64,000 nucleotides of DNA from an uncultured Gammaproteobacteria bacterium. Lineage in GTDB: Bacteria; Patescibacteriota; Patescibacteriia; UBA9934. The notes under the pieces were generated by a model. That model made no database searches, was not told where the DNA came from, and saw nothing but the letters and a program-made list of their open reading frames with translations. A program made the translations under genes and the position numbers. Of this stretch, positions 25,014 through 47,018 are shown one piece after another (within the stretch, counting starts at the first letter, position 1; every line of letters starts with the position of its first letter). The stretch spans positions 72,895-136,894 of the forward strand of contig CAZTKG010000001.1 of the NCBI GenBank assembly GCA_964613815.1. The letters are read 5' to 3'.

Positions 25014-25958
25014 TTATATATGCCTAGACTAGCGAATAAATTGTCAAAAGAACAGTGTTTAGCTCTTGTGGAGGCTGAGAATTTTACACGTACGTCGATA
25101 AGTTTTTATCGGTACGTGCGTATTGATGATCCTGAGGCGCTTCGCGATGAGCTTTATCGAGAATGGTCTGAGCTTGGCGTGCTTGGGCGTATTTATGTTG
25201 CTTCTGAGGGGATTAATGCGCAACTGAGTGTGCCTTCGCATCATGTTGATCGGTTTCGTGCCGCGGTTGATGCTCGTGATGAATTCAGTGGCGTGTCGTT
25301 TAAGGTTGGGCTGAGTGAGCGCGGGGTTTCTTTTTGGAAGTTGACGATCAAAGCGCGTGATTACATCTTGGCGGACGGTCTTGATCAGGGTGAGTATGAT
25401 GTGACAAATGTGGGAACGCACTTGTCTGCTCGGGAGTTTAATGAGGCGATTGATGATGGTGCGGTTGTTGTTGATATGCGGAATGCGTATGAAAGTGAGA
25501 TTGGGCATTTTGAGGGGGCGATTTGCCCAGACGTGAAGACGTTTAAAGAAGAGCTGCCTGTTGTGCTTGAGGAGCTTCGTGGGCGTGAGGATGAGAAGGT
25601 GCTTTTGTACTGCACGGGCGGGATTCGTTGTGAGAAGACGAGTGCGTATTTGAAGCATCATGGGTTTCAAGATGTGAATCAGCTCCATGGTGGAATCATT
25701 GATTATAAACATCAGATTGATGCGCAGGGGCTTGAGACGAAATATAAAGGCGTGAATTTTGTGTTTGATGGGCGCGATCCGGAGGTACTTACGGATGATG
25801 TGCTTGGGAAGTGCTATCGATGCAAAAAACCGGCGAATGTGCCGGTTGATTGCGTTAATGTGGTTTGTAGTTTGATGTTTTTACAGTGCGGTGAGTGTGA
25901 AATTGTTTTTCGATCAACGTGTTCGAATGATTGTTCAGATATTATTTTTTCTTTTTAA
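25014..25958 (+). CDS. trhO: Rhodanese-domain tRNA uridine(34) hydroxylase TrhO (UPF0176/YceA family)
   Basis: Rhodanese active-site loop LYCTGGIRCEKTSAYL plus the N-terminal UPF0176 domain. Confidence 0.8.
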   Translation, partial: LYMPRLANKLSKEQCLALVEAENFTRTSISFYRYVRIDDPEALRDELYREWSELGVLGRIYVASEGINAQLSVPSHHVDRFRAAVDARDEFSGVSFKVGLSERGVSFWKLTIKARDYILADGLDQGEYDVTNVGTHLSAREFNEAIDDGAVVVDMRNAYESEIGHFEGAICPDVKTFKEELPVVLEELRGREDEKVLLYCTGGIRCEKTSAYLKHHGFQDVNQLHGGIIDYKHQIDAQGLETKYKGVNFVFDGRDPEVLTDDVLGKCYRCKKPANVPVDCVNVVCSLMFLQCGECEIVFRSTCSNDCSDIIFSF

Positions 25959-26516: not shown

Positions 26517-26545
26517 TTGACAGAATTTGATGTGCGTGGTAGACT
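26517..26545 (+). promoter_or_regulatory. Strong sigma-70-like promoter at the left edge of GC-rich island 1
   Basis: TTGACA, 17-bp spacer, TAGACT, preceded by an AT-rich UP-like tract. It drives a 650-nt GC-rich leader and the DUF1874 gene. Confidence 0.5.
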
Positions 26546-26877
26546 GCTTTCTCGTGATGGGCAAGCGATAACATTCGCGCTCAAAAACGGAGGATTCATT
26601 CTTGAATATTGGCCTCGTAGTGTAGACGAACCCCAGCGTTTGCAGTGCGAGCCGAAATTCGAGAAGGAGGCTTTGCTAAATTCTTGATGGTTCTGCCCGA
26701 CGGGGCTAAACGCGCTAAGATGGATGTTCCCTTGTGCAATTAGGCGTGCAAGGTTGTGTACTGAAGTCGAAGCAGTCTTTATCACCCGCCTCGCTTGGCC
26801 ATATGGGGCCATGTCGACGATTGATCAACGTTATAGATTGTGTGCCGAGCGCTACTCGGATGTCACCTGGGGAAGCT

Positions 26878-27048
26878 ATGGAAAGCTTTGTGACAGAGAG
26901 CTACGGCGAAATTCGCCACGGTCGGGTGTGGTTTACCACGTCCCCTGCCGAGCTCAAACAGCGGCGTAAGCCGTCCACCCCTGCCGGAAAGAAGGTTGTT
27001 GTTACGCGACGCAACGGCCAAGAGATCCGGCGGGTCGTCAGCAGCTAG
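26878..27048 (+). CDS. Possible small ORF (56 aa) inside the GC-rich leader
   Basis: MESFVTESYGEIRHGRVWFTTSPAELKQRRKPSTPAGKKVVVTRRNGQEIRRVVSS. High GC3 like the DUF1874 gene, but the RBS is poor. Could equally be non-coding. Confidence 0.2.
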   Translation: MESFVTESYGEIRHGRVWFTTSPAELKQRRKPSTPAGKKVVVTRRNGQEIRRVVSS

Positions 27049-27205
27049 TCGCGACCTCTGGGCAAAGAGGGGTTCCAACTTACTACTGGGGTACCTCTTC
27101 TAGAGTAGATGATTTTGATCATCAGTTCTAGAAGCTTGATCATGAGAATGGTCGAGTGCATCACCTGGGGCCAGCAAGAGCCCTGTTTTTTTGTTGGAGA
27201 ATGAT

Positions 27206-27547
27206 ATGACTCGTTACTTTGGTTTCGCATTCAGCGCTTCCATGCTTCCCTCTGGCCTCGTCAACCTGCGCAAGCAGGACCTGACGGTCGAGCAGGTTCG
27301 GGAGATGATCCCGTCCTGTGAGATGTGCCTCAACCCGTTCCATCGGGCAACGGTCGACGCGGCTTGTTCGCGGTTCGACCTCCCGATCTCGATTCCTGAT
27401 CGCCCTGCGCGCATCAGCCTCGGCGTCGGCGACAGTGTCGTTGTCATGCAGGTCCGAGGCCTTCCGAGGCTGCAGGACCGCCGTGAGTACACGGACGAGG
27501 AGATCGAGAACGCCAACTTCTCCTTCATGGAGATCACTGTGGTTTAG
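27206..27547 (+). CDS. DUF1874-family protein (AcrIII-1/Crn2 cA4 ring-nuclease-like)
   Basis: 113 aa with RBS GGAGA 5 nt upstream. YFGFAFSASML N-terminus, FHRAT His region, RISLGVGDSVVVMQVRG, EEIENANFSFMEITV C-terminus. These align, from memory, with STIV B116 / SIRV1 gp29. About 58% GC versus 45% for the host. Confidence 0.6.
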   Translation: MTRYFGFAFSASMLPSGLVNLRKQDLTVEQVREMIPSCEMCLNPFHRATVDAACSRFDLPISIPDRPARISLGVGDSVVVMQVRGLPRLQDRREYTDEEIENANFSFMEITVV

Positions 27548-27588
27548 GCCACAAAGGATGTGGGGAGCCTTAGATTCGTCTGGGGACT

Positions 27589-27632
27589 CTTCCAAGGAGT
27601 GTTCTGCATTTCTTGGAAGAGTTTTTTGTTTA
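27589..27632 (+). terminator. Rho-independent terminator of the DUF1874 transcript
   Basis: CTTCCAAG-(14 nt)-CTTGGAAG followed by AGTTTTTTGTTTATTTG. Confidence 0.7.
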
Positions 27633-27736: not shown

Positions 27737-29047
27737 ATGGATTTAGACATTGAATTAGGGAGGCATGAGCTTAGCGATGAACGTAAAGAGATTTTACAAC
27801 AGGGGGATGAGGCTATTGAGCATGCTAGGGTGCGAGAAGGAGCTATTAGACATCTTAATATCGAACTTGGAGGGTTCAGTTTAACGATGAGTTCCGTCGC
27901 ACGTTATGAGCGTCTTATTGAAAAGCAAGGATACGAGATCGAGCGACTTGAGGCTGAAGACGACGGCTCAAGAGCTCAAGAAATTGCTGATGCGTATATT
28001 GATTATGAAAATTTAGATTCTGCTCTTGAGAAAGCTAGGGCTCGTTTGGAGAGGGTTGCTGTTGAGATTGATCGGCTGCTCGCTATTGAGCAAGCCGAAG
28101 AAGGAAAGGATGAGGAAGCGTTTGCTTCGCTTGAGCGCGCCATGGCAACGACTCGATACATGATTACGCGCGAGGAGACGCGAAATGGGATTATTTTGGA
28201 GCGTATAACGTCTGAATTGACTGAGGCTTCGGGGGAGATTCCGGATTTTTTGTCAGCGTTTAATGAAGCATTTGAGGATTTAAAAAATGCAGATGCGAGC
28301 ATTGAGGCGGATTCGCTTGTTGAATTGGGTGCGACGAGTGTTCATTTAAGGGCCGTTGATTACGATTCTTTTCTCGCAACACACTACGGCGAGCATGATG
28401 TGAGGTCCACGGAAGCTTCCGCCCACCTTGATCGGTTGGTTCATGAGAAGCTTCCACAGTCGATGCGTGATGAGATTGATGATCATATGCAAAAAGCTCT
28501 TCAAAAAGATGAACTTATGATTGATGAGGTGCCGGATGAATTTGAAATTGACATGTCCAACGAAGATGTTTCTGAGGGTGAGCGTGTGAGAAGAAGCGCT
28601 GCTTTGATGAACGGTGCGTCAGCGCGGGTCAGGCAAGCGAAGAAGGATAAGCCGCGGTTTTATGCATCAAAAGAAAAGAAGGCTGCTTGGAAAGAGCGCT
28701 TTGATGAAGCTTGGGAGTTTTATCGAGAGCAGTATACGTATCATTCCTTGGCAAAGATTGAGCGCGCGTATGTGAAGAAGTTGTTTGATGATGCGCGTGA
28801 AGAGGTGCGTGTTTGTGCTGAGATTTCGAAGGCGTCTACAAAGGCTCGGGATCGAATGGCTCCACTGCTTGGTTCGATACGAAGGGCTGATAAACTCACG
28901 GGGAAGATGAATCAATTATCGAATCTGGGTGATTCTGAAAATGTTCGGCATCGTCAGAAGATTCTAGATTCTGTTGGTCGAATGCGTGTTCAGCCGAATA
29001 ATAAACATTTGCAAAGATTTCTGGAGAGGCACAAAGGAAAAAAGTAA
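27737..29047 (+). CDS. Hypothetical acidic coiled-coil protein, paralog A of a tandem pair
   Basis: 436 aa. Acidic helical N-terminal part and a basic C-terminal KPRFYASKEKKAAWKERFDEAWEFYREQ motif shared with 29401..30729. Confidence 0.6.
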   Translation: MDLDIELGRHELSDERKEILQQGDEAIEHARVREGAIRHLNIELGGFSLTMSSVARYERLIEKQGYEIERLEAEDDGSRAQEIADAYIDYENLDSALEKARARLERVAVEIDRLLAIEQAEEGKDEEAFASLERAMATTRYMITREETRNGIILERITSELTEASGEIPDFLSAFNEAFEDLKNADASIEADSLVELGATSVHLRAVDYDSFLATHYGEHDVRSTEASAHLDRLVHEKLPQSMRDEIDDHMQKALQKDELMIDEVPDEFEIDMSNEDVSEGERVRRSAALMNGASARVRQAKKDKPRFYASKEKKAAWKERFDEAWEFYREQYTYHSLAKIERAYVKKLFDDAREEVRVCAEISKASTKARDRMAPLLGSIRRADKLTGKMNQLSNLGDSENVRHRQKILDSVGRMRVQPNNKHLQRFLERHKGKK

Positions 29048-29289: not shown

Positions 29290-29400
29290 ATAAAATCATT
29301 ATAGCAGGCTTTTGTGATTTCGTTTGATGTGCGATTTCTTTGAAGTGTTATAATGATGTTGTAACAATTGTGCGTGGAGGTCCATGCTGGAAATCGTTTT

Positions 29401-30729
29401 ATGGTCGTAGATATTGAGGTGAAAAACCATGAGCTTAGTTCAGATGAGTTAAAAGATCTGGAAAGAGGGAGTGAGGCGATGGCGATGGCGCAGGCTCGTG
29501 AATTGTTTTTTAAGCGCTTCAACCTGTCTCTTGATTTGTACTCGCGTACATTGAAGGGTGTTCAGGATTTTAGTGAGAGTGTTTTATCAATTGAGCAGGA
29601 TATTGATGCGTTGGTCGAGCAGGATGAAAACGGTGTTCATGCGCAACGGATTGCGGATCTTCGTGATAGGGCTGTCGAGACTGATAAATTTTTAGATGCT
29701 TCGCATGAACGTTTGGCTGCATTGGCTGTGAGGATTGATGCGTACATTGCTGTGATGCAGGATATTGAGGGTAGTTCTAGCGATGCGCTTTTGTCGCTTG
29801 ATCGAGCACGCGCGACTGCTGTTGCGGTGCGTGAGGATCAGGAGTTACGAAGGGCTCGGTATTTACAGCGGCTTAGCAGAGAGATTGATCCGATGCAGAA
29901 AGAGCTGCAGGAAGATTTGCGTGTCATTGAAGTTGCATTTGAGGACATCGTCACGTATGACGATGAAGTGTCGGAAGATGATTTTGCGGAGATGGATGGA
30001 TACAACCCTGCTGATGGTCTGGATACTTGTGAGTCTTTTTTGGCAGATCGTCTAGACGTTCTCAATCCACGATTAGATGAGGCTAGTGAAGCGGTTGAGC
30101 TTTTAGAGACAAGGGATCTGGATTTGGCTGAGGCGGGTGAGCTACGTGCGCTGATGGATGAAGTTATGCGTAAAGATGTGTATGCGGTAGACGATGTTCC
30201 GCGAGAGTTTAGTGTCCGAATGTCGTTTCCGGATATTGTGGAAGATAGGCGCTTGCAGCGGGCAAAGGCTGGTAGCGTAGGGGCGGGCCGTGCATTTAGA
30301 CAGGAGAAAAAAAGGAAGCCGCGGTTTTATGAATCAAAAGAAAAAAAAGCTGCTTGGAAGAAGCGGGTTGATGCCGCATATAATTTTTTCCGAGAACAGC
30401 GTACTTATCAGCTTTTGGCAGCTGTAGAGCAGGATTTTGTGAAACGGATTGTTAAAAAAACGGAAGGGGTTCGTGCTGAGTTGCGTGTGTGTGTTGAATC
30501 TACTGAATTAGCATTAAATAAAGTTCGTCGTTTGCAGGACAGGGCTTATGTGTTGAAAGAAAAGTTGGTAGAATTCGGAGAGATTGAGGATATTGCAACA
30601 GATCATGATGACTATGTTGGCGATACTATGGAAGCAATTACGCGCCTGCATGTCGACGTTGATTCTGATTTGTTGGAGCGTTTCTTGGAGCATGTTAAGC
30701 AAGAAAAAAAGGACGTTCGTAGCCCTTGA
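29401..30729 (+). CDS. Hypothetical acidic coiled-coil protein, paralog B
   Basis: N-terminus MVVDIEVKNHELSSDELKDL parallels MDLDIELGRHELSDERKEIL of paralog A. Shares the KPRFYESKEKKAAWKKRVDAAYNFFREQ block. Confidence 0.6.
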   Translation: MVVDIEVKNHELSSDELKDLERGSEAMAMAQARELFFKRFNLSLDLYSRTLKGVQDFSESVLSIEQDIDALVEQDENGVHAQRIADLRDRAVETDKFLDASHERLAALAVRIDAYIAVMQDIEGSSSDALLSLDRARATAVAVREDQELRRARYLQRLSREIDPMQKELQEDLRVIEVAFEDIVTYDDEVSEDDFAEMDGYNPADGLDTCESFLADRLDVLNPRLDEASEAVELLETRDLDLAEAGELRALMDEVMRKDVYAVDDVPREFSVRMSFPDIVEDRRLQRAKAGSVGAGRAFRQEKKRKPRFYESKEKKAAWKKRVDAAYNFFREQRTYQLLAAVEQDFVKRIVKKTEGVRAELRVCVESTELALNKVRRLQDRAYVLKEKLVEFGEIEDIATDHDDYVGDTMEAITRLHVDVDSDLLERFLEHVKQEKKDVRSP

Positions 30730-35616: not shown

Positions 35617-36004
35617 TTAACGATGGGGATTGAGGACAGTTTCATAACCAATGATCTCTGTTAGTTTTGAAATGAGTTGGTGCTCATTTGCGTATTCGTG
35701 AATTTGTTTTGTTATTGTTGCGATGGATGATGATACGGTCCTATCGGTTTTATGAATTGCAATGATTGGAAGATTTATTGAGTTTGCCCAGCCGAGTTCA
35801 ATACCTAGGCCTGTTGAGGGATGTGAAACCTCTGCGATGAATAGGTTCATTGTTTTCAGTTTTTCTTGCGTATTCGTTGGTGCGATCGAATGTTCGTGCG
35901 GGAGGATGATTTCGTGTTTGGTATTTAGTTCTGAGTTTTTGATTGGCTGGTAGAGATCTTTTTTGTAATCAAAGCTTGATGAATGGCCGACGTATATTTT
36001 CATG
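35617..36004 (-). CDS. Nucleoside 2-deoxyribosyltransferase-like protein
   Basis: MKIYVGHSS...NLFIAEVSHPSTGLGIELGWANSINLPIIAI fits the NDT-family Rossmann pattern. The track ORF start (36156) spuriously extends into the tRNA exon. Confidence 0.4.
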
Positions 36005-36075
36005 ATTCTAGTGTATAAGAAAACCCGCTTTGAGGTCGAGCGATATGTTATTGGTTTTGCGAGATTTTTATCAGC

Positions 36076-36101
36076 AATGAAAAACACCACCGCGAACGGT
36101 G
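36076..36101 (-). terminator. Rho-independent terminator immediately after the tRNA-Asn 3' end
   Basis: On the minus strand: CACCG-TTCG-CGGTG followed by GUGUUUUUC. Confidence 0.65.
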
Positions 36102-36151
36102 ATGTTTTCTTGGCTCCGGGGGTGGGATTCGAACCCACGACCAATTGGTTA

Positions 36152-36675
36152 CACATTATCCTGATGTTTCCATCGGGGGTGGACTATATCATCATCCCTT
36201 TGGGATGCGAGGCGCTTCGAACTGATTTTTCAGCCCTACTCCTTGCGGATAGTCTCTGAACCTTCCCTTTCGGGCTTGGCTGCTGATTGCCCTGTCTTTC
36301 GATTTAGGTTTCCAGCAATTCACCTCGTTTTCACTCCAACGTTGCCGATGGAGGCTGCGTGATGCCAGCATGAATTTCTCTATGGCAGTTTGCACAAATT
36401 AGAACACATTTGTCGAGCTCTTTTTTCACCCTTTCCCGCGATCGAGTCAGTCCATCTTGAGATATTCCAAACTCTTTTTTTGATGGGTCAAGATGATGAA
36501 AGTCGAGTGCACTCCCGCATTTTTTATAGCTGCAGATCGTGCACTGGCGCCGAGATATTCGACAGCCATTTGTCTGACTTTTTTGCGCCTTTTTGAAACT
36601 GCTTTTTTGAGATACTCAGCTCTGTCGGCGTATTTTCTCTTGTCTGGCATGGTTTTCGTATACCTGACGTGTTTC
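36152..36675 (-). mobile_element. Group I intron (about 524 nt) carrying an HNH homing-endonuclease pseudogene
   Basis: Lies between the tRNA exons. Contains the P7-like GUUCAGAGACUA element near the 3' end, a 5' splice site after U and a 3' splice site after G, and an internal HNH ORF. Confidence 0.7.
36331..36650 (-). pseudogene. HNH homing endonuclease, frameshifted (1-nt deletion near 36547-36550)
   Basis: Frame A reads MPDKRKYADRAEYLKKAVSKRRKKVRQMAVEYLG. The +1 frame then reads QCTICSYKKCGSALDFHHLDPSKKEF...DKCVLICANCHREIHAGI, a complete HNH motif set. A single G deletion in ...CTCGGCG(G)CCAG... explains the break. Confidence 0.75.
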
Positions 36676-46076: not shown

Positions 46077-47018
46077 TCACGCGGCGGAGAGGTAGGCGGC
46101 GTGTGCGGTCAGCCAAGCTGGGCGTGGGACGCCGAGAGAGGCTGCCATTGCATCGATGCGTGGGCTCAAACGGACGACTTCATCGTCGTAGCGTGTGAAG
46201 CACGCGAGCGTGGCGATGCTGTAGAGGAAGCGATACTGCGTATGCGAGTTGTTGAACGGCGTGTGCGCCATGAAGTGCGCGAGGGTGAAGGCGCTGATGA
46301 GTCCGTCGTACTTCATGAGCTCGACGTACGCTTCTGGATGGCTCTTTAGCCAATGCAGTGCCTGCATGGGCGTGATGGGTGCCTGGGGGGTGTTGCCGGC
46401 CGTGCGCCAGAGGTCGTCGGTTCGGCAGGTGTAGGCCATGTTGATTGCACTCAGGGCGCGGCAGACCATGCCGTCGAGGCGTGGGGCGTGGGGTGGACGT
46501 GCGCGTTCGTGGGCGGCTCGCATGGCGTTGATGAGCTTGTGCGCAGCGGCGCACATGATTCTGAGGCTCAGGTCGAATTGGTCGCCGATGATGCTCTCTG
46601 ATGCGATGCCGAAGCTGCGTTTGGCGCGACGATCGCGCTTGAGACGCTTGCGGCGCTCGATGCGACCGATAGCGTTCTGGCACAGCAGCGCGTTGACGCG
46701 GATGGCGTCGGCCTTGAGCTCGAGGACGATAGCGCTGTCGGGCTGTCTGTCGGCGAGTCGCAGAACGAGGTTCATCGTTCTTCTCCATCCCTCCGGGGAT
46801 TTGATGATCTCCGCAGCGATGAGGCCGGTGTTGCGCGACATGGCTCGAATGATGCCATCGACAGCCCCGCGAAGGTTGCGGTAGGCGACGGCGTCGGCTC
46901 CGAGATCTTCGTGGAGCCTGGTCGCGTTGTAGAAGTTCATGTCCCGCTCGAGCGCGGCAGCGAATGCGGGGTTGAGTACTTGCAGGTCTGTGGGTGGGAA
47001 AGGACGTGGGTCCGTCAT
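46077..47018 (-). CDS. Hypothetical protein P5 of island 4 (start at MTDPRPF with GGAGAAAT RBS; the track ORF to 47327 is an N-terminal over-extension)
   Basis: Paralog of P3. About 60% GC. Many antisense shadow ORFs. Confidence 0.5.
   Translation of the reverse strand: MTDPRPFPPTDLQVLNPAFAAALERDMNFYNATRLHEDLGADAVAYRNLRGAVDGIIRAMSRNTGLIAAEIIKSPEGWRRTMNLVLRLADRQPDSAIVLELKADAIRVNALLCQNAIGRIERRKRLKRDRRAKRSFGIASESIIGDQFDLSLRIMCAAAHKLINAMRAAHERARPPHAPRLDGMVCRALSAINMAYTCRTDDLWRTAGNTPQAPITPMQALHWLKSHPEAYVELMKYDGLISAFTLAHFMAHTPFNNSHTQYRFLYSIATLACFTRYDDEVVRLSPRIDAMAASLGVPRPAWLTAHAAYLSAA

Follow-up and report, generated by a model that had tools for sequence, protein, structure and literature searches.

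Enzymes of the DUF1874 family have so far been met as viral anti-CRISPRs and, rarely, as the CRISPR-associated Crn2. The viral form, AcrIII-1, is represented by SIRV1 gp29 (PDB 6SCF and 2X4I), STIV B116 and AFV3-109; in SIRV1 gp29, H47 is the general acid, and T50, Q81, R85 and S11 are among the contacts with cyclic tetra-adenylate (cA4) named in the text of Athukoralage et al. (bioRxiv 10.1101/778746). Crn2, as in the Marinitoga Csx1-Crn2 structures (8Y7F and 8Y7G), is by definition associated with type III CRISPR loci, and YddF of the Bacillus subtilis integrative and conjugative element (ICE) ICEBs1, with proven cA4 cleavage, is a stand-alone DUF1874 cargo on moving DNA with no adjacent CRISPR locus. 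Here we describe a block at positions 26517-27632 of a 64-kb window (the whole stretch of 64,000 nucleotides analyzed, from contig CAZTKG010000001.1) in which a gene for a 113-residue DUF1874-fold protein and a second gene for a 56-residue protein are strung between structured elements (Table 1). What we have found is a diverged form of an established enzyme family, in a genetic setting that is poorly understood and partly published, and the reading that we prefer, with some confidence, is that the block is a horizontally acquired two-gene mini-array carrying an AcrIII-1-like protein.

The 113-residue protein is a member of the DUF1874 fold with its catalytic histidine intact, and belongs to a divergent clade that lies below the Pfam threshold. 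Its AlphaFold2 model (mean predicted local distance difference test score, pLDDT, 90.6) was compared with the PDB by Foldseek, and the best 16 matches were all DUF1874 structures (2x4i, 6scf, 2j85, 2j6b and 8y7f/g; template-modelling (TM) scores 0.65-0.73, E values down to 2.7e-6), the top matches being SIRV1 gp29 both apo and with cA4, STIV B116, AFV3-109 and Csx1-Crn2, with a Foldseek probability of 1.0; the first match outside DUF1874 had an E value of 1.6. There are 24 metagenomic homologues at 55-71% identity, and a profile of the 24-member family finds AFV3-109 (2j6b, E=0.0027) and SIRV1 ORF114 (2x4i, E=0.08) in the PDB, while hhalign pairs the family with SIRV1 gp29 at a probability of 84.7% and E=6.7e-6. 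The alignment of the protein to PF08960 covers profile positions 18-100 of 101, and 16 of the 24 homologues match that profile at E<0.1, all of them below threshold (best E=1.9e-4). Elsewhere the protein matches only phrog_5063, of unknown function, among the PHROGs (E=0.007), and nothing in NCBIfam.

The catalytic His and several of the cA4 contacts are preserved. H46 is invariant in 24/24 sequences and is aligned to H47 of SIRV1 gp29 by both HMMER and hhalign, and T49, Q82, R88 and S10, all invariant or nearly so, pair with T50, Q81, R85 and S11. A first-pass annotation of this DNA, made from the letters alone, had named the protein as DUF1874 and predicted a conserved catalytic His and Glu; the fold assignment is upheld by the profile, hhalign and model comparisons, though not by the single sequence against the PF08960 gathering score, and the His is as predicted. 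The predicted Glu is an Asp (D91) in this family, the comparison being with E88 of SIRV1 gp29, which we take to be a residue of importance in that enzyme. The text of bioRxiv 10.1101/778746 names H47, R85 and others, not E88. Likeness to AcrIII-1 thus extends to the fold (TM about 0.7), the length, the catalytic His and the four paired contacts, and some relatives of the protein are phage-borne; the differences are an identity of only 16-21%, changes at the equivalents of N8, S49 and N13, and a two-residue insertion (GLP) before the lid Arg. We infer that the protein is most likely a His-dependent cyclic-oligoadenylate phosphodiesterase. Such an AcrIII-1-like enzyme would be dimeric and metal-independent, would use His46 as its general acid, and would act on cA4, or on a closely related oligonucleotide that is cyclic or bears a 2'-OH, to leave 2',3'-cyclic phosphate ends; its role may be to damp cA4 signalling on behalf of the host or of a mobile element.

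The genomic company kept by this family is unlike that of any characterized DUF1874 member. A scan of one genome per species yielded 58 family loci, mostly in Patescibacteria, the candidate phyla radiation (CPR; Saccharibacteria, Parcubacteria groups, Uhrbacteria and others), together with a few metagenome-assembled genomes (MAGs) labelled Gammaproteobacteria, Bryobacterales, Melainabacteria or Methylococcaceae. Clustering of neighboring open reading frames (ORFs) identified a single widely kept neighbor, a TrmB-type winged helix-turn-helix regulator of about 260 residues present in 29 of 62 loci, often directly adjacent to the DUF1874-like gene, often divergent, and within 150-350 nt of it, which points to a regulatory or functional partnership that the window lacks. 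Other neighbors are housekeeping genes (IleRS, RNase Y, ClpP, DnaK), and in four loci (L004, L008, L010 and L066) a Ro60 (TROVE/vWA) gene lies upstream. Relatives on phage-like DNA are found on a 99-kb contig and on seven IMG/VR viral contigs, but most relatives are chromosomal in CPR bacteria, and where AcrIII-1 is by definition encoded by a virus, provirus or mobile element, the window copy stands outside any recognizable one, among housekeeping and chromosomal genes. The likeness to Crn2 lies in the fold and the cellular location, whereas the type III CRISPR association that defines Crn2 was found neither in the window nor near relatives. No CRISPR array is present in the 64-kb window, and none lies closer than about 8 kb to the gene in 65 family loci, the sole match (L055) being a low-complexity direct repeat; a PADLOC search of the 56 window ORFs gave no Cas10, Csm, Cmr or CARF family among the best 25 of 67 families matched. 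The proposal of the first-pass annotation that the gene is a host-recruited Crn2 thus gains nothing from these searches.

These neighborhoods bear directly on an alternative view of the protein, in which the DUF1874 fold has been kept but the protein is not a cA4 ring nuclease, acting instead on another nucleic-acid substrate linked to Ro60 or TrmB (RNA ends or a different cyclic nucleotide, for instance), or binding a host protein. We regard this as possible though rather less than an even prospect. The lack of CRISPR or CARF context in the window and in the 65 screened loci, the TrmB-like, housekeeping and occasional Ro60 neighbors, and the changes to some of the cA4 contacts all accord with it, and there is a precedent for protein binding in SIRV2 gp37, which is without Acr activity during native infection and acts as an inhibitor of a lysine methyltransferase (bioRxiv 10.1101/2023.01.10.523387). 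Nevertheless, the general-acid His, the Arg of the loop that locks cA4 in place, and the Thr, Gln and Ser contacts are invariant or nearly invariant, which speaks for catalysis having been retained on a similar ligand, and members on phage contigs are what would be expected of an anti-signalling enzyme.

Table 1. Features of the block in coordinates of the window, with the evidence for each.
Feature	Position	Strand	Evidence
Sigma70-like promoter candidate, predicted (TTGACA-17-TAGACT, TG-extended)	26517-26545	+	Consensus scan, 10/12 matches
Leader hairpin, 77 nt, imperfect stem of about 31 bp, apical loop AACCCCAG (26629-26636)	26594-26670	+	Folding; -37.1 kcal/mol
Gene for small basic protein, 56 residues	26878-27048	+	phmmer homologues, conserved motif; GC3 0.70
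Junction element: CUGGGGUAC, then hairpin 27097-27134 (contains GATGATTTTGATCATC)	27086-27134	+	Recurrence in relatives
Second small hairpin (CUUGAUCAU-GAGA-AUGGUCGAG), G.U-dependent	27135-27156	+	About -7.4 kcal/mol sense versus -0.4 antisense
Weak hairpin and T-run directly 5' of ribosome-binding site; starts with third CUGGGG	27166-27192	+	Terminator-like scan, 6 pairs
Gene for 113-residue DUF1874-fold protein (AcrIII-1/Crn2-like ring-nuclease homologue)	27206-27547	+	Ribosome-binding site GGAG 27195-27198; GC3 0.78
Terminal junction element, predicted intrinsic terminator: CUGGGGAC, 20-21-bp hairpin 27582-27626, T-run	27580-27632	+	-26.8 kcal/mol, z=-5.9

The layout of the block is that of a self-contained-looking transcription unit. 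The promoter candidate has the top sigma70-like score between positions 25800 and 28200 and sits at the border between host intergenic DNA of 25% GC and the insert; it is predicted to drive one transcript comprising, in order, the 77-nt hairpin, the 56-residue gene, the junction of CUGGGGUAC and hairpin, the 113-residue gene, and the second junction, which would serve as terminator. The promoter, the hairpin and T-run ahead of the ribosome-binding site, the 113-residue ORF behind GGAG and the strong terminator hairpin had all been picked out by the first-pass annotation, and each is present. What lies between the promoter and the 113-residue gene had been taken for something quite different, namely a 650-nt leader without a convincing ORF, serving as a regulatory element or non-coding RNA with an attenuator, in front of a single gene in a prophage or defence-island remnant.

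By sequence conservation, the 56-residue ORF inside this supposed leader, which the first-pass annotation had named as the best candidate there but set aside, is a real gene. When 1.84 billion representatives were searched exhaustively with phmmer, nine homologues of 51-73 residues emerged (E values from 8e-8 to 6.5e-4) that share the motif SYGxIRRGRxWFTTSP...VVIRRR, in which G, W, TTSP and L are invariant in the alignment and the VVIRRR tail is basic. Gene callers begin this gene at 26860, giving 62 residues. One homologue is at 8841-9014 of L066 (E=2.7e-12), about 700 nt from a DUF1874 remnant and downstream of it, the small ORF of the window being upstream of its DUF1874 gene; a second is in the small-gene array of L090, downstream of IleRS-TrmB. 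The protein has no match in Pfam, PHROG or NCBIfam, and a word-indexed protein search with a 104-residue extended form of the ORF returned only itself, the family emerging by exhaustive phmmer. A 62-residue ORF of L008 was considered as a homologue and rejected as belonging to another family. Within the same part of the block a perfect AAGGAGG is present at 26663-26669 on the + strand, half enclosed by the base of the leader hairpin on its 3' side, and precedes a tiny ORF of 18-32 residues (26645-26743 region, +) at the long spacing of 16 nt to the ATG; this ORF could be a leader peptide or a product of chance.

Recognition of this gene alters the meaning of the small palindromes that had prompted the description of a structured leader. 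The four palindromes are where the first-pass annotation placed them (GGCGAAATTCGCC at 26905, GTGGTTTACCAC at 26928, GTCGCGAC at 27048 and GATGATTTTGATCATC at 27108), as is the direct repeat CCCCTGCCG at 26942 and 26978. Small perfect hairpins are mildly enriched, with 10 observed against 4.3 +/- 2.5 in shuffled sequence and 12 of 300 shuffles reaching 10, but two of the palindromes and the CCCCTGCCG repeat fall within the small gene and encode conserved residues of its product. Another repeated word, TCACCTGGGG, is found at both 26863 and 27161. In favor of a single regulatory leader are the promoter-like site 660 nt upstream of the gene, a folding score of z=-2.0 on the sense strand only for 26552-26877, and the hairpin and T-run 5' of the ribosome-binding site. 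Set against these are the conserved protein-coding gene within it, the lack of any Rfam match, the failure to find the DNA of 26552-26877 conserved anywhere else except at the hairpin, and the lack of phage or defence genes flanking the block, whose flanks are housekeeping genes in a window without a CRISPR array. We consider this model very improbable; the region holds a conserved gene and discrete RNA elements, including a 77-nt hairpin (z=-7.3) that had been overlooked.

This leader hairpin is the most strongly folded of those elements on the sense strand, with z=-7.34 (0 of 200 shuffles reaching it) compared with z=-0.22 for the antisense. Among 314 CCCCAG sites in 983 kb, six occupy the apical loop of an approximately 30-bp hairpin, and all six are on the gene strand and occur once each, in the window and in L004, L007, L010, L066 and L090; a covariance model built from the six (R2) found nothing further in 866 kb. 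In the other array loci the hairpin lies between TrmB and either Ro60 or the array. Covariation scored column by column is moderate (70.6% of cells paired versus 62.8% in shuffled alignments, 2 of 500 being as high) because helix length and register differ between loci. Rfam 15 holds no family matching any element of the cassette, whether the region was searched at E<=1 or the whole window at gathering thresholds, and none for the elements of 14 related loci together with L004, L066 7080-7720 and L066 1780-1990; the only matches obtained were to a group I intron in another part of the window and to tRNAs of L016 and L042, the rest being noise.

The company of Ro60 invites comparison with Ro60-Y RNA modules. 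In L004, L010 and L066 a Ro60 gene separates the leader hairpin from the array. L008 has its Ro60 gene immediately 5' of the array, on a sequence that ends too soon for a hairpin to be seen, and the leader hairpin, as a long imperfect stem, resembles the stem of a Y RNA. The window, on the other hand, shows neither a Y RNA match in Rfam nor a tRNA-like module, and has no Ro60 domain in the Pfam overview, and identification of the leader hairpin as a Y RNA is unsupported, since the hairpins of the window and of L066 match no Y RNA family in Rfam. Separately, an apparently non-coding stretch of about 370 nt just 3' of Ro60 (L008 2076-2446 and L066 7331-7700) is 80% identical between the two loci and as conserved as Ro60 itself; it has no Rfam match and no tRNA-like module, and could be a Y-RNA-like partner.

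The junction elements likewise recur. The 9-mer CUGGGGUAC, followed by a hairpin with the 5' arm (C)UCUUYC, is present at L007 5911, L066 9064 and L090 5223, and in these hairpins the (C)UCUUYC...GRAAG base is kept while the interiors differ yet stay paired; more broadly, CUGGGGUAC with one or more hairpins is found between ORFs in L004, L007, L008, L066 and L090. The region 27082-27162 folds with z=-2.7 in the sense orientation against -1.3 in the antisense, L007 has a hairpin at the position matching that of 27135-27156, and the 5' arm of the terminator (UCUUCCAAGGAG) is similar to UCUUCCUGAGAG at L066 9064. The hexamer CTGGGG is concentrated here, four of its 15 + strand sites in the window falling within 714 nt of the block, where the density of the remaining 11 predicts about 0.12. 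We also observed a short GC-rich hairpin directly 5' of an (A)GAAAGGAG Shine-Dalgarno sequence in many Saccharibacteria loci (for example L012, L014, L015, L023 and L026), often downstream of a near-consensus TTGACA...TATAAT; the window hairpin at 27166-27185 has the same position.

The leader hairpin, the junction elements and both types of gene are thus parts of small same-strand gene arrays seen in six related loci, downstream of a TrmB-type regulator and often with a Ro60 gene. These loci are mostly metagenome contigs, one being labelled Uhrbacteria (CPR) and two Gammaproteobacteria MAGs. Array junctions in L004, L008, L010, L066 and L090 carry a two-helix element that we refer to as class A, consisting of CCUCAAYURAG, a hairpin and then CUUUGAGAGG, in which 93% of cells are paired versus 80% in shuffled alignments (0 of 500 as high), with both partners altered in 9 of the 14 pairs. 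A covariance model of this element (R1) found 15 copies, all on the + strand and in consecutive intergenic regions, and none in the Saccharibacteria loci. Each element is immediately 5' of a short ORF without a Pfam family. Relative to the collinear L008, L066 has an additional 775 nt comprising two ORFs bracketed by elements, and this insertion, together with a gene order differing from that of the window, indicates that the arrays vary cassette by cassette.

The class-A elements correspond well to the 'DUF1874 motif' of Weinberg et al. 2017 (PMC5737381), which, in the section devoted to it, is described as a multistem structure with a conserved internal loop, located in 5' untranslated regions, found in consecutive intergenic regions (RNA-ORF-RNA-ORF) and linked to DUF1874 genes. 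The array elements are probably this published motif, as matched by description rather than by consensus; the window differs in carrying only the reduced form of CUGGGGUAC and one hairpin, and that section makes no mention of a leader hairpin. It also raises an attC-like role for the motif, and reports no integrase or recombinase.

An attC-like role implies DNA recombination sites at the junction elements, and possibly at the leader hairpin too, with the block consisting of two captured cassettes in an integron-like arrangement. Several features accord with this idea besides its publication for the motif: short promoterless ORFs lacking Pfam families alternate with imperfect hairpins in consecutive intergenic regions, cassettes bracketed by elements have been gained or lost between L066 and L008, the order of the small ORF and the DUF1874 gene is swapped between the window and L066, and the block has seemingly crossed into a host without the TrmB-array context, most family carriers being CPR. 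We nonetheless think it unlikely. No integrase or recombinase was noticed near the window or among the called genes and Pfam matches of the inspected array loci, in keeping with the report cited above; direct repeats flanking the block are limited to AT-rich low-complexity matches; and the RYYYAAC/GTTRRRY boxes of the R''/R' consensus were not seen in the stems when examined by eye. Moreover, 23 of 212 predicted pairs in the elements are G.U, and the sense strand folds more stably than the antisense (-20.0 versus -10.6, -22.7 versus -10.5 and -37.1 versus -15.2 kcal/mol), both of which favor RNA in the coding orientation over single-stranded DNA. The lack of a recombinase in the inspected loci and the sense-strand folding lead us to rank an RNA-level role, for instance in processing, stability or termination, above recombination of the attC type, although the cassette-like variation still leaves room for the latter.

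The loop of the leader hairpin, of the form (G/A)(U/A)ACCCCAG(CG), is the reverse complement of the junction motif CUGGGGUAC. In L066 the match extends over 9-11 nt at three junctions, which none of 300 shuffled loops reach; in L090 there is one 9-nt site with a non-significant count of 7-mers (30 of 300 shuffles), and in the window, L007, L004 and L010 the match is 7 nt and individually non-significant. This complementarity is suggestive, and could equally reflect one DNA motif used both ways. Taken further, the window might be a minimal self-contained copy of an undescribed CPR-type cassette array, in which pairing of the loop with CUGGGGUAC would give RNA-guided processing, regulation or mobilization of the cassettes, a proposal that we consider unlikely. 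If true, the DUF1874 enzyme and the WFTTSP protein would be common cargo, and the co-occurrence of the hairpin, the junctions and both cassettes in a host of another kind would be evidence for movement of the whole unit.

Returning to the two-gene mini-array that we favor, its acquisition by the present host is indicated by composition. The GC content of the block is 53.9%, lower than the figure of about 58% given in the first-pass annotation; it is 50.5% in 26552-26850, and reaches 60% in the two ORFs only. GC content alone is unexceptional because other 500-nt blocks of the window are richer, 46501-47000 for example having 62.6%. Better signals of foreignness are the GC content at third codon positions (GC3), which in both genes is well above the 0.41-0.52 of neighboring genes, and the GC skew, which drops at the cassette from about 0.3-0.45 to about 0; on these measures the view of the block as compositionally foreign holds. 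The cassette is not an assembly artefact, since identical junctions are present on 17 contigs, from several samples and assemblers, that are 99.9-100% identical. No convincing target-site duplication or terminal or flanking direct repeats were identified at the block, and a DNA search of the phage collection with it gave no match. In being a stand-alone DUF1874 gene on apparently moving DNA the block resembles YddF, but it has no ICE or conjugation genes and its carrier is two ORFs with structured junctions. We envisage that it would be a fragment of the array system linked to TrmB and Ro60, moved into an unrelated marine bacterium of 47% GC.

Several considerations weigh against this reading, both as to the enzyme and as to its transfer. 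The single sequence scores 13.9 bits against PF08960 where the gathering score is 26 (E=0.059), three cA4-contact residues are altered relative to SIRV1 gp29 (N8 to F7, S49 to A48 and N13 to S12), and the equivalent of R66 is uncertain, P67 being aligned with R69 nearby. With no type III CRISPR system, CARF effector or other cyclic-oligoadenylate system visible in the window or near relatives, no source of cA4 is visible for the protein. The class-A element detected by R1 is absent from the window, which has only the simpler CUGGGGUAC-and-hairpin form (27086 and 27580), and the structure of the transcript is itself a prediction. High GC3 is a trait of the family, exceeding that of flanking long ORFs in 61 of 63 loci (medians 0.71 versus 0.49) in hosts ranging from 32% to 62% GC, so composition is weaker evidence for recent transfer; the trait could reflect frequent transfer from a GC-rich pool or selection at the level of mRNA. 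Finally, the rhodanese beside the block has metagenome relatives of up to 69% identity that lacked shared synteny, and with no empty site for comparison the borders of the insert rest on composition and the presence of the leader hairpin.

The remainder of the window is ordinary, its 56 ORFs being chromosomal genes in the Pfam overview, and the cassette is flanked by TruB, a UPF0176 rhodanese, a DoxX-like gene, acidic paralogues of unknown function and an arylsulfotransferase. The paralogues, of 436 and 453 residues, are encoded immediately 3' of the cassette at 27737-29047 (+) and 29368-30729 (+), have blocks in common, among them KPRFYxSKEKKAAWKxR...FxREQxTY, belong to no Pfam family, and have between them a basic 75-residue ORF on the opposite strand. 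A full-length group I intron is present at 36160-36425 (-; RF00028, 95 bits, E=3e-23). The adjoining ORF at 35617-36156 (-) begins with LVVGSNPTPGA, the usual translation of a tRNA T-arm, and the intron thus probably interrupts a tRNA gene, although ARAGORN did not call it. GC skew of the + strand is positive (0.1-0.45) over 59 kb and changes sign near 59.5 kb, at the peak of cumulative skew, which could mark a switch of the replication terminus or origin type, or a rearrangement boundary.

For annotation, the gain is a 56-residue gene family rescued from what had passed for a leader, and the recognition that this 'leader' is not a riboswitch-like element. The 'DUF1874 motif' arrays likewise acquire an anatomy, with a leader hairpin, the CUGGGGUAC motif and cassette-wise variation, and the two-cassette copy in an unrelated marine bacterium is a natural experiment in which the RNA and DNA hypotheses can be set against each other. 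More generally, there is a large divergent clade of DUF1874 proteins that is missed by Pfam and is encoded mainly on chromosomes of CPR/Patescibacteria, beside TrmB and with CRISPR not seen, and its existence raises the question of which cyclic-oligoadenylate signal, or other substrate, is handled there.

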